The notes: generated by a model not told the origin, from the letters alone. A stretch of DNA of 64,000 nt from an uncultured Bacilli bacterium (GCA_910586295.1 CAJUGE010000011.1:22798-86797), one strand, 5' to 3'. Shown: positions 2,071 to 58,301, numbered from the stretch's first letter. Numbers and translations: made by a program.

Positions 2071-2552
2071 ATGTCAAATGAACTAATTAATAAATATAGA
2101 AAAGAAGGAATTAAAAGTTTATTCGAAATTCCAAAAGAACATAAAATATTTAAAACATATCAAATTTTAGGAGACCGCGAAATTTCAACATATTTTATAA
2201 TTATCCAAATAACTTTTTAATAGGTACATGTGAAGGATGGTCAAGAATATTTGTAGGTAAAATAGGAGAAAAAGATTGTAGAAATCGGGCTGAATTAACA
2301 TTATTCTACTTGGATTATGCTCACCTATTGTCATACTTAGGAGAAGATTTCAGTAAAGTAGAATTTTTTAAACTAACTAAATATAGGGAAACTATGATTT
2401 TAGAAGATAATTGTACTCCAGTATTTTATGGCTCATTTGGAAAATGTCATGAAGATATGAATTTACCTGAAAGTAATGGAAATTTATATGATGAACTAAA
2501 AGAAAATGTTGATGATTATATAAAAGGTTGTTTAACATCATATATATATTAA
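2071..2552 (+). pseudogene. Hypothetical protein (about 160 aa) split by one frameshift in a T5 run (2214-2218); ORFs 2071-2220 and 2154-2552 join in frame if the run is T6
   Basis: Two overlapping ORFs in frames +1/+0; restoring one T gives continuous ...QITFLIGTCEGW...; AAAGGAG RBS before 2071; no recognisable domain. Confidence 0.45.
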
Positions 2553-2880
2553 TACAGGAAACATTAACACTAGACCCTTCATTTTATTTAATTAAAAACT
2601 ATAGAAAAATGTTGTAATGAATCAAATAGAGAATTTAGACCAGATGAGTTAGAAAAAGTTTACGAAGAATTTAATAAAAAAATGATGAGTAAACCCTATG
2701 TTCTAAGTTTTAGAAGAAATTAGTATAATATTATATGCTATTTAATTTTCAAAAATCATATAATAATTTGAATATTAATTATACTTATGATAAAACAAAA
2801 AAACAGAAACCGAGTAAAGCATTTATGTTGTTTTACTCTTTATTTTATGCTAAAATAACTAACAAAAGAAAGGAGAACAA

Positions 2881-3610
2881 TATGAAAATAATTGGAGTTT
2901 TTAATCCATGTGGTTTAAATCCATTAAATGATGTAGTCCTAGTACCAGCTGATTTTAATGTTGTATATCAAGATGACAATGGGAAGTTATTTATAAAATA
3001 TTTAGATTCAGGAGACTTCTCTATAATTACACTTAAACTAGAACAATTAAAAAGCTCAGCAGAAAAAATCAAAGAAATAGAATTATATCTTACAGAAGGA
3101 ATAAGTCAGATAGGTTATCCTACTAAGTATAAACCTATAAGAAATGAATTTATGGTATATCCATTCACATTAGATGGAACAACAAAACATGCCTATAGTA
3201 GCTTAGAAGAATTTCCTACTGGTAAAATAATGATTGACCCAAATATCCAAACAAGTAATGAAGCTTTTAATCAAGCAGTTATTTTTCCTAATCAAGAATT
3301 ATATATAGGACAATTTAAATATATATATGAACAAGCTAAACCTTATCTAAATATTAATGGAAATATAACAAAATTTATGGGATTAATAAACTGGCTTATA
3401 AATAACATGTATCTAGAGGAAGCATATGAATTAATCATGCAAATGAAATCATCAGGAGCTAATCTTAAAGAATTCAATCATCCAAGGAAGCTATTTGTTT
3501 TGGATGGTTCAACTAACTTTTTAGATTATTCATTGAATAGAATAGCAGACCTTAATTTAATTAAAGAGAATACTAAAAGTCTTAAATTAAAAATATTTGA
3601 TAGAAAATAG
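2881..3610 (+). CDS. Hypothetical protein (243 aa), no recognisable domain
   Basis: AAAGGAGAACAATATG RBS/start; followed by a strong terminator hairpin; the ORF-track start at 2735 lacks an RBS. Confidence 0.6.
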
Positions 3611-3633
3611 ACTCCAAATAATTGGAGTTTTTA
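3611..3633 (+). terminator. Rho-independent terminator (actccaa/ttggagt stem, T-run); a second 8-bp hairpin lies at 3641-3671
   Basis: Perfect 7-bp stem with 4-nt loop then TTTTT; immediately after the stop at 3610. Confidence 0.75.
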
Positions 3634-3676
3634 TTATTTCCCAAGCCCCTTATTTCCTGGGAAATACTACATATAA

Positions 3677-3705
3677 TTTACAATAAGCCAAAAAAGTGAT
3701 ATAAT
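3677..3705 (+). promoter_or_regulatory. Sigma-A-type promoter for mnmE: TTTACA-17-TGaTATAAT
   Basis: Near-consensus -35 (3677-3682) and extended -10 (3700-3705) with 17-bp spacer, 25 bp upstream of the mnmE RBS. Confidence 0.6.
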
Positions 3706-3729
3706 TTTTGACATTCGGAGGGATGTAAA

Positions 3730-55730: not shown

Positions 55731-55741
55731 AGGTGTTTATA

Positions 55742-56296
55742 ATGAAAAAAGGAAAAGTAGTAATAATAAGTGGAAACAAGCGAGCAGGAAAAACAACTTT
55801 AACAATAAAATTGCATAAAGAGTTAGGGTTTAACTTTTATAATTTTGATACTCTAACAGACTCTATTGAAGAAGTACACTCTAACTTAGAAGGAGATCCT
55901 TATTATATAAAACTATTAGAAGAAATGGTAAAATTCGCCTTAGAATTCGCAGAAAACTATGGAGTTAACTCTGTTTTTGAATATATTGATTTTACTCCAG
56001 AATTAATGGCAAACTTTAAATATAAAGAACAAGTAGAAATTTACTATCTTGCTAATCTTGAAGCAAATAAAGATAATATAAGAGAAGATATGAAAAAATA
56101 TTCTAAACCTTTTGACTGGCCAGCATATTGTTCAAAAGAAGACGTAGAAAGAAATGTTAAATTTATATTAAAATTTAATGAAGAGCTAGTTAATGAATGT
56201 AAAAAATATGGATTTAATTTAATAAACACTAAACGTGGTGAAGAAAGAAGCAAAGTCTTAAATGAACTAACAAAACAAATATCAGAAACTATGTAG
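55742..56296 (+). CDS. Small P-loop NTPase / kinase-like protein (AAA_33-like)
   Basis: Walker A GNKRAGKTT near the N-terminus; about 185 aa. Confidence 0.5.
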   Translation: MKKGKVVIISGNKRAGKTTLTIKLHKELGFNFYNFDTLTDSIEEVHSNLEGDPYYIKLLEEMVKFALEFAENYGVNSVFEYIDFTPELMANFKYKEQVEIYYLANLEANKDNIREDMKKYSKPFDWPAYCSKEDVERNVKFILKFNEELVNECKKYGFNLINTKRGEERSKVLNELTKQISETM

Positions 56297-56416
56297 GAAT
56301 AATACTTCATAGTTTTTATTTACTCCCCTACTTTTATGTAAACTTTTATCAAATATTTAATGAATAAATAGACTAAAAAAATAAATAATGATATTATTAC
56401 TTTAAGGAGACTAAAT

Positions 56417-56989
56417 ATGAAAGAGATAACAAGCGATATAGTTGAAAAAATAAAAAAGATATTAAATAAAGTCTATGAAGATGACCAGAAATATAGAAAA
56501 AATTCTAAAGAATTTTTAGACAAATATGGTCCGAATTCTAACGAAGTACAAGAAGCACTAAAAGAACAAGCAAGACTAGATAAATTAAATTTAGAAAGAA
56601 TAGAAGTAATTTTAGAACAATATGGATGGGTAAGTGAAGACATTGTAGGTTTCAAAGAAAGTGAAGCAATATTTTTAGTTATTCAACATGCTAGTTTAGA
56701 AACGCAGATGAAATACTACCCTATTATGGAAAACGCTGTTAAACTAGGAAATGCTAGAAAATGTGACCTAGCAATGTTAGAAGATAGAATACTAGTAAAA
56801 CAAGGAAAAGAGCAAATATATGGAACACAAATTATTTATAATGAAGATAGGAAACAATATGAATTAGAACCGCTTGCCAACCCAGAAACAGTAGAAGATA
56901 GAAGAAAAAGCGTAGACCTTCCTCCGATGAATGAATACTTAGCTCTCTATGGTTTATCATGGGAAAATGGAATTACTAAAACAAAATAA
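56417..56989 (+). CDS. Conserved hypothetical protein, paralog A (DUF-type family, about 190 aa)
   Basis: Shares ILxKVYxDDQKxR ... YGW ... FLVIQHA ... QIYGTQ ... RRKxV with 58330-58899 (about 45% identity). Confidence 0.6.
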   Translation: MKEITSDIVEKIKKILNKVYEDDQKYRKNSKEFLDKYGPNSNEVQEALKEQARLDKLNLERIEVILEQYGWVSEDIVGFKESEAIFLVIQHASLETQMKYYPIMENAVKLGNARKCDLAMLEDRILVKQGKEQIYGTQIIYNEDRKQYELEPLANPETVEDRRKSVDLPPMNEYLALYGLSWENGITKTK

Positions 56990-57100
56990 GTTTTTCCAGT
57001 CAAACAAAAAAGTTAGGAAAACAAAAAGTTTTTCCAGTATATCCAAAAAACTTTGAAAAAATCATATTCTGTTATATAATATATAAAGAGGTTAATAATT

Positions 57101-58301
57101 ATGATAATAAGAGAAAGATATCTAAAAAAAATAAGAGACTTTTACAATGTAACTTCATTAATCAAAGTTTTATGTGGTCTTAGAAGAAGTGGAAAATCTG
57201 TAATATTAAAACAAATAATTGAAGAATTAAAAAGTTTAAAGATAGAAGAGAATCATATTATATATAAACTTTGAATCACTTGAGTATTCTGAAATAACAA
57301 ACGCAAAAGAACTAGATAAATATATTAAAGACTTAATTAAAGATAAAGACATATATTATGTTTTTTTAGACGAAGTGCAAAAAGTAAAAGATTTTGAATT
57401 AGCAATAAATTCACTTAGAGTTACTGACCAAATAAGCATATTTATAACGGGTTCAAACAGTAAAATGACATTTTTAGAACTTTCAACAGATTTATCAGGA
57501 AGATATGTAAGTTTCAAAGTAAACCCACTTTCATTTAAAGAAATAGTATTACTAACAAATACTCCAAAAGAAGATTATAAGAATCTATTACTAGATATAT
57601 TTGAATGGGGAAGCCTCCCACAAAGATTTATGTTTGATAACATAGAATCTAGACAAAACTATATATTAGATGTTTACGACTCAATTCTTCTAAAAGATGT
57701 AGTAGAAAGACTAGGGATTACTGACATTACATCATTTAATAAAATATTACAATATGTCCTAGAAACAGAAACTAGAGAATTCTCTGCTACCAATATTCTT
57801 ACTTATCTTGAGAATAATAATAACAAAATTGCAACAGACACATTATACAAATACTTAGATGCCCTATGTTCAACATTTATAATAAATAAAGTTTATAGAT
57901 ATGACATACAAGGAAAAAATGTTTTAAAATCATTAAATAAATTTTATGCAACAGACTTAGGTGTAAAAAAGATAAAGACAAAAAATAAAAATGTTAATTA
58001 TTCTAGTTCCTTTGAAAATCTAATATATAATGAATTAATAAATAAAGGTTATGAAGTTTTCATAGGAAAAACAAATAAAGGAGAAATAGACTTCATGGCA
58101 ATTAAAAATAAGGATATAAAATACATTCAAGCCTGCTACGATTTATCGAATGAAGAAACAAGAAAAAGAGAATTTGGTGCTTTTGATTATATTTCTGATA
58201 ACTACCCTAAGTATGTAATATCGAACAATGAAGAAGATTATTCTACTAATGGCATAATACACATTAACATATTTAAGTTCCTGATGGATGAAGATTTTTA
58301 G
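57101..58301 (+). pseudogene. AAA+ ATPase (AAA_14 + DUF4143) with a frameshift in an AT-repeat/A-run at about 57255-57270
   Basis: N-terminal ORF with Walker A GLRRSGKSV stops at 57272; the +1 frame continues with Walker B YYVFLDEVQ and a DUF4143-like C-terminus; one fewer base in the tatataaac region would restore the frame. Confidence 0.6.

Follow-up and report, generated by a model that had tools for sequence, protein, structure and literature searches.

Frame breaks in five genes of an uncultured gut Bacilli species as probable natural pseudogenes

The decay of dispensable genes is an ordinary phenomenon, and Mira, Ochman and Moran reportedly described in 2001 how pseudogenes decay with a deletional bias in host-associated bacteria that have recently become restricted in their niche. 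Here we look at a 64 kb stretch of DNA from an uncultured Bacilli bacterium (the window; GCA_910586295.1, CAJUGE010000011.1:22798-86797) in which five genes are frame-disrupted, namely a hypothetical gene between jag and mnmE, a tsaC, a ydeN-like serine hydrolase gene, a gene with an ORF6N domain and a gene for an AAA_14/DUF4143 ATPase. These genes resemble known cases of pseudogene decay in that they carry mostly small deletions in non-essential genes, with later multiple hits in some of them, with lesions specific to certain strains and with the housekeeping genes spared. They differ in coming from a gut Bacilli species that is uncultured and represented by metagenomes only, and in offering a nested series of three, four and five deletions that is unusually easy to read. 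Bacterial mutation as a whole has a deletional bias and the excess of 1-bp deletions in the window is in line with it.

Frame breaks of other kinds provide a contrast. The homopolymer errors of nanopore or 454-type sequencing are alike in their single-base losses, split open reading frames (ORFs) and AT-rich genome, but the lesions in the window recur in short-read assemblies, lie outside long runs and are confined to dispensable genes. A second contrast comes from the window itself, where prfB (release factor 2; 18631..19711, minus strand) also has a frame break, a programmed +1 site made up of GGGAGG, a 3-nt spacer and CTT TGA C at 19636-19651. On TIGR00020, which has a cutoff of 370, the 359-aa product of the joined frames reaches 454 bits, with full PCRF and RF-1 domains, the frameshift motif is kept at three of the strain and relative loci that we fetched for comparison and number with the prefix L (L130-L132), and gene callers give only the downstream portion of 286-295 aa. 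This is a canonical programmed site and no lesion, and it serves here as a positive control. Its conserved Shine-Dalgarno-like GGGAGG and its CTT TGA C have no counterpart in the five disrupted genes, whose orthologues are uninterrupted.

Gain, loss and inactivation are common among defence genes, and two of the five genes are candidates for a role of this kind, as the repaired ORF6N and AAA proteins match full length the PADLOC models PDC-S05 and PDC-S01, respectively. The PDC families were predicted by 'guilt by embedding' and are untested candidates (Payne et al., bioRxiv 10.1101/2024.01.29.577857). A PDC-S05 representative is reported to have protected E. coli from T7, T5 and T4, and the four candidates that gave protection did not include the representative of PDC-S01 (bioRxiv 10.1101/2024.09.26.614923). 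In comparison with the tested PDC-S05 protein, for which a RhuM domain is described, the ORF6N and AAA genes of the window are broken members of candidate families and are known from sequence alone.

Frame breaks in independent assemblies of the species

The window belongs to the replication-origin side of a spore-forming Firmicute, with the gene order rnpA-yidC-jag-mnmE-mnmG-rsmG followed by prfA, prfB, dnaB, whiA, gap-pgk-tpi, spo0A, pgm and the S10 ribosomal operon. Exact-sequence matching found its proteins only in metagenome assemblies and metagenome-assembled genomes (MAGs), and the nearest species representatives in GTDB, to which RsmG is only 64-72% identical, comprise Clostridium sp. 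CAG:628 and MAGs of uncultured gut Bacilli/Firmicutes. Much closer are the contigs that we used for comparison, which comprise ENA contigs with SPAdes-type names (NODE_..._cov_), Logan contigs from other runs and a JGI contig, drawn from more than 25 samples in several accession series. With an identity to the window of 98-99.9% they represent distinct strains. Scans of the whole window with Rfam and for tRNAs gave no match, so no RNA gene accounts for the gaps.

All five genes are frame-disrupted, as a reading made from the sequence alone (the sequence-only reading) had it, and its eight calls of a −1 change were right in direction, although the nine frameshifts that it listed become at least 11 indels that break the frame, in addition to one nonsense codon. 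When repaired, the translations match the Pfam domains ORF6N, Ser_hydrolase and AAA_14 with DUF4143 across the junctions, TsaC matches TIGR00057, and every gene except tsaC reads through with no leftover stop. The lesions are real, orthologues do not have them, and strains either share them or are polymorphic for them. Each of the five genes is accessory or occupies a derived position, much as the sequence-only reading suspected, and we infer that they are dispensable to the lineage. We are confident that the frame breaks mark genuine pseudogenes of natural origin in a wild population, the species being an uncultured, spore-forming member of the gut Bacilli with a low GC content (27%).

One explanation put forward in the sequence-only reading was long-read homopolymer under-calling, an assembly artefact that would have removed single bases from genes that are really intact. 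The breaks are indeed mostly 1-base losses in an AT-rich genome, and the window itself could have come from such a platform. However, 45,440 bases of the window are reproduced with zero mismatch by independently assembled Logan contigs of run SRR8443416, which span the tsaC, ydeN, ORF6N and AAA sites, and more than 25 other samples yielded SPAdes, Logan and JGI contigs in which the lesions recur. At sites with a known ancestral state, GACAC has lost its A, AAAAAGAA a G and CC one C, and a TA unit has gone elsewhere; none of these losses is inside a long run. The lesions are also nested phylogenetically. Runs of at least 5 bases number 743 in the window, and those of at least 7 number 85, none of which is shortened in the housekeeping genes covered by a tblastn scan. 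The presence of the lesions in independent short-read-style assemblies refutes under-calling and leaves an artefact barely credible.

The same reading had placed all of the frameshifts in homopolymers or an AT repeat. Most of these placements were wrong, as the indel positions fixed by relatives lie 5-20 nt from the runs that had been named and outside long homopolymers. Placement of this kind is in any case uninformative, because runs of at least 3 hold 26% of the window's bases and each permissible zone of 16-67 nt has 1-7 of them, so that a run can always be found.

What stood was the observation that the lesions are not randomly distributed. The Poisson probability of five events in a single 0.93-kb gene is about 2e-6, and correction for some 65 genes brings it to about 1e-4. 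The tblastn scan, which took every ORF of the relatives as a query, detected no additional housekeeping frame break in the regions covered. The housekeeping genes covered are thus free of lesions, as had been claimed, but the claim that housekeeping sequence holds no frameshift at all had overlooked the programmed +1 site in prfB. Among strains the ratio of indels to single nucleotide polymorphisms is about 9:41 in the pseudogenes and similar in intergenic DNA (about 17:77), while 45.6 kb of intact coding sequence shows essentially just compensated or in-frame gaps, a pattern that matches the prediction of neutral decay beside purifying selection. Most of the 'stop' and 'frameshift' flags raised by the tblastn scan were rejected as they arose from spurious antisense ORFs of AT-rich relatives, and the overlap of the ORFs at 44472-44873 and 42455-44551 was rejected as a frameshift because strains have separate HTH_5 and P-type ATPase genes there.

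The mechanism that best accounts for these observations is that small spontaneous indels, mostly 1-bp deletions, together with one contraction of a dinucleotide repeat and one nonsense substitution, struck genes that were not needed. These would be two candidate anti-phage defence genes, one orphan on an island, one accessory serine hydrolase gene and one tsaC at a non-ancestral site. After the first inactivation further lesions would pile up neutrally and give rise to the multi-hit genes, and the non-random distribution would follow because purifying selection clears such indels from housekeeping genes. Slipped-strand pseudogenization of dispensable or mobile genes had been the other explanation in the sequence-only reading; the nested and polymorphic lesions and the intact orthologues bear out the pseudogenes, whereas slippage is clear only at the TA repeat of the AAA gene. 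Replication slippage is an apt description of the loss of the TA unit and perhaps of the A8/A9 variation in the same gene, but most of the other events look like plain 1-bp deletions. In practical terms the five loci should be annotated as pseudogenes and not 'corrected' by polishing, and the case illustrates that, even where reads are not at hand, a comparison of public assemblies made independently for one species allows frame breaks in metagenome-derived sequence to be assessed.

The four genes other than tsaC

The gene with the ORF6N domain (48584..49511, plus strand), a member of the PADLOC candidate defence family PDC-S05, lies directly upstream of spo0A and carries five 1-bp deletions, the number that had been called from the sequence. 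The sites are different, as aligning the gene's DNA to that of other strains and of two sister species places them at about 48750, 48962, 49098, 49300 and 49422. At the first and fourth sites TT has become T, at the second the A of GACAC is missing and at the fifth a C or T has been lost after TT, whereas the G lost at the third (from AAAAAGAA) itself created the 'A7' run in which the break had been placed. The repaired ORF encodes 310 aa with no stop and its product matches PF10543 (E=2e-20, model 2-86 of 86) and PDC-S05 (PDLC04869; E=2e-82, positions 12-302 of 306). Intact homologues of 303-308 aa are 73% and 64% identical over 97-98% of the query, and the gene is intact in sister species at the same locus upstream of spo0A (L038, GCA_949026395.1, and L040-L043).

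Three of the ORF6N deletions are common to 10/10 strains. The fourth is missing from L011, L012, L013, L016 and L018 and the fifth from L011 and L016, so that the alleles form a nested series with three deletions (L011, L016), four (L012, L013, L018) and five. This gives a small, clean case of gene decay in a wild gut bacterium, with one candidate defence gene seen at three successive stages.

A second candidate defence gene segregates as an intact and variously broken alleles. The AAA_14/DUF4143 ATPase gene (57101..58301, plus strand; PADLOC candidate family PDC-S01) is broken in the window into pieces of 57 and 308 aa, and the repaired protein matches PF13173 (E=2e-32), PF13635 (E=1e-11) and PDC-S01 (PDLC04787; E=8e-130, positions 10-409 of 412). 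The break had been read as one base too many, but in comparison with an intact 400-aa allele with an extra TA, seen in L035 only, it is the loss of one TA unit from (TA)4 within 57255-57262, a change of −2. The allele of the window is also present in five other samples (L028-L031, L034). Other broken alleles have an A added to an A8 run at 57124 (L028, L029, L034) or a T lost at 57352 (L033, L037), and one strain has an in-frame 9-bp deletion, which brings the count to one intact and at least three different inactivating alleles.

The variation of (TA)3/(TA)4 and A8/A9 among strains is what might be expected if the AAA gene were switched on and off reversibly at slip-prone simple repeats, and programmed ribosomal frameshifting would likewise mean that the disrupted genes are still in use. 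The lesion of tsaC is conserved across the species and the organism does use programmed frameshifting in prfB, both of which would suit such a reading. However, no junction in the five genes shows a slippery heptamer or a CUU-UGA-type motif with an upstream Shine-Dalgarno sequence, the reading frames of orthologues in relatives are unbroken, and one recoding event cannot rescue genes with 3-5 breaks. In regard to phase variation, the AAA tracts are short and the repeats in general (3-4 units, or runs of 2-3) are too short for classical contingency loci, and strains that carry both AAA indels remain out of frame. No tract of this kind lies at the true lesion sites of the other four genes, and tsaC has in addition a nonsense codon and substitutions at invariant residues. 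We consider it highly unlikely that recoding or phase variation keeps these genes in use, and regard them as pseudogenes.

The surroundings of the AAA pseudogene are variable. Within 56990-60642 the window has this pseudogene and two DUF6624-like genes, where other strains have a radical-SAM gene instead. The gene at 58943-59524 is intact in the window and is frameshifted (an added C at 59197) and split in L033 and L037, and the TehB-like methyltransferase gene at 59758-60642 (minus strand; 294 aa) is without the C-terminal ~77 aa that the alleles of L012 and L040 (370-371 aa) have. An extra, intact gene for a 439-aa AAA_14/DUF4143 protein is carried by L011 and L016 between pgm and an ABC transporter, at 51965-52242.

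The ydeN-like serine hydrolase gene (PF06821; 34381..34934, plus strand) has a strain-specific 1-bp deletion at codon 21. The change was correctly called as −1 but assigned to a T3 run at 34445-34447, whereas comparison with other strains identifies it as the loss of a C (CC to C) at 34440/34441, which turns TTTCCATAT into TTTCATAT. The gene is intact, with CC kept and 184 aa encoded, in 8/8 other fetched strains, and the repaired protein of the window matches PF06821 over model positions 1-166 of 172 (E=5e-17). A shortened product of 151 aa with a GTG start is found on 5 contigs, including those of SRR8443416 and SRR10027827, both identical to the window; no record was found for a version with a TTG start. 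Comparison with orthologous loci, suggested in the sequence-only reading as a check, has thus given intact alleles or orthologues for ydeN, AAA and ORF6N, in support of real lesions.

The hypothetical gene belongs to an uncharacterised family of ~220 aa and had been described as ending at 2552 with a single break in a T5 run at 2214-2218. It is disrupted, but it extends over 2071..2723 (plus strand) and has three breaks, as the homologues P0293 and P0294 align end to end over 2071..2717 through three frames. The first break (−1) lies at about 2200-2203, near 2201, the second (−1 or +2) at about 2545-2549, near 2548, within TATATAT, and the third (−2 or +1) at about 2590-2593, near 2591. Full-length homologues have 219-225 aa and are 42-44% identical. 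The gene sits on a strain-variable island of 1.65 kb between jag and mnmE (1953-3610), together with a 291-aa ORF without a family match; the island is present in the window, L002 and L004 and absent from L001, L003, L005, L006, L009 and the sister L048, the nearest relative. At the first break L002 and L004, the two other strains with the island, have the same sequence as the window, and a 49-aa fragment from another strain stops at the same point.

Several points weigh against the interpretation of the frame breaks as natural pseudogenes. The evidence consists of assemblies taken at face value, the Logan contigs could derive from any sequencing platform (a literature search on the run and assembly accessions gave no hit), and the SPAdes origin of the ENA contigs is read from their NODE_..._cov_ names. 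In the hypothetical gene, and at sites 1, 4 and 5 of ORF6N, the identity of the lost base is inferred from relatives that are 42-85% identical. In the hypothetical gene the first break is confirmed in L002 and L004 alone, the second and third are read in the window only, and no intact close allele is known. Finally, a tsaC that is broken throughout the species is unexpected for a nearly universal gene.

The tsaC pseudogene beside rsmG

TsaC/Sua5 is close to universal and usually essential, as part of the N6-threonylcarbamoyladenosine (t6A) pathway, which made tsaC the odd one out among the five genes in the sequence-only reading. The gene in question (7701..8326, minus strand) encodes a YrdC-type threonylcarbamoyl-AMP synthase (family TIGR00057, PF01300) with homologues of 209-214 aa, and its repaired 208-aa product scores 158.4 bits on TIGR00057 (cutoff 123.2; model 2-200 of 202). 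A frameshift had been called correctly but located at a G2 at 7907-7908, outside the 10-nt zone (7913-7922) to which the 1-bp deletion is confined. Within this zone the gene strand has CC (GG on the plus strand) at 7918-7919, where one extra base is needed for the invariant Val-Pro-Ile to be read, so that the deletion falls just before the PSAN segment. The frame is consequently not continuous over the domain, which includes P-x-x-x-P-S-A-N-x-S-G, and the C-terminal part has no start before MDELYGK. A second lesion, which had gone unreported, is an in-frame TAA at 8306-8308 that takes the place of ancestral codon 7 (MRKYIN*KDIDDN), a position at which homologues carry Glu or Lys.

All strain loci compared (9/9) have the same frameshift and the same TAA. 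The 124-aa product occurs as 17 sequence variants, of which the 15 listed are all of 124 aa, on more than 80 contigs, and L004 has an extra 1-bp deletion at 8033. The TsaC of the window has also lost residues that are invariant in the family, with N20, D43 (in the KGRP motif) and I107 at positions where 12 homologues have D, G (11/12) and R. These substitutions (D20N, G43D, R107I) segregate within the species on the frameshifted gene, with D, G and R kept in other strains, and the window is derived in this respect. Amino-acid diversity of the TsaC fragment in comparison with housekeeping clusters is unusable as a test of selection as the 90% clusters span unequal depths of divergence.

The position of the gene softens the worry about its essentiality. 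The pseudogene is carried by a lineage-specific insertion (7663..8494) between rsmG and a parB-like gene, and in L048, the nearest relative, a 120-bp spacer separates rsmG from the parB-like gene behind it, with no tsaC insertion. The insertion may have arisen by translocation, duplication or transfer. TsaC-like sequence was found within 10 kb of rsmG in 0/80 related genomes. The best intact homologues are 66-68% identical and none above 68% was found among 5.8 billion proteins; an intact syntenic tsaC was sought in relatives and none was found, and as the 66-68% homologues lie in unrelated contexts, synteny is no help in establishing orthology.

This raises the question as to whether the species keeps a working TsaC/Sua5, the point in this dataset that could matter more than the pseudogenes themselves. 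Were the pseudogene the lineage's sole TsaC/Sua5 gene, the t6A37 modification of tRNA would have been lost or would be made in another way, and a free-living, spore-forming lineage of gut Bacilli would be without the near-universal t6A37 pathway or would have an alternative route to threonylcarbamoyl-AMP. Throughout the species the frameshift and the TAA, together with additional decay, have become fixed, and the 66-68% identity of TsaC to its homologues is about that of RsmG to its counterparts in the nearest relatives (64-72%), so that it resembles a native orthologue more than a foreign extra and could be a native gene that moved and then died rather than a redundant copy. On the other hand the derived position is common to no relative and fits a duplicated or translocated redundant copy, and the near-universal and usually essential nature of TsaC/Sua5 is general knowledge. 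The part of the genome examined was the 64 kb window and its flanks. We judge it unlikely, with an appreciable minority chance, that this was the only TsaC/Sua5 gene, and a functional tsaC or sua5 is probably present elsewhere in the genome.

Other variable loci in the window

Further genes in the window vary among strains, and at three loci (27663-29582, 55733-56296 and 58943-59524) other strains carry pseudogenes in place of a gene that the window has intact. The HD_3 gene at 46167-46796, between pgk and tpiA, is missing in L011, L014 and L016. A gene at 27663-29582 (minus strand), whose 639-aa product matches nothing in Pfam, is hypervariable: strains differ by substitutions in dense clusters and by gaps that keep the frame, and in L022 the gene is split into pieces of 259 and 363 aa. 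Between a PBP5-like gene and rplI lies a likely degraded remnant of an IS3-family transposase (22330-23031, minus strand), also present in L131. It has a 97-aa orfA-like ORF (HTH_Tnp_1, E=6e-4; transpos_IS3, E=4e-4) and short out-of-frame pieces resembling the C-terminal integrase core (rve_2, E=2e-3), with all of these matches below the curated cutoffs. An ORF for a 187-aa P-loop protein at 55733-56296, with weak matches to AAA_14 and nSTAND3, is intact in the window, split into 49-aa and 68-aa pieces in L010, L012, L015 and L019 and fragmentary in the sister species L040, and looks like another gene that is decaying in the population.

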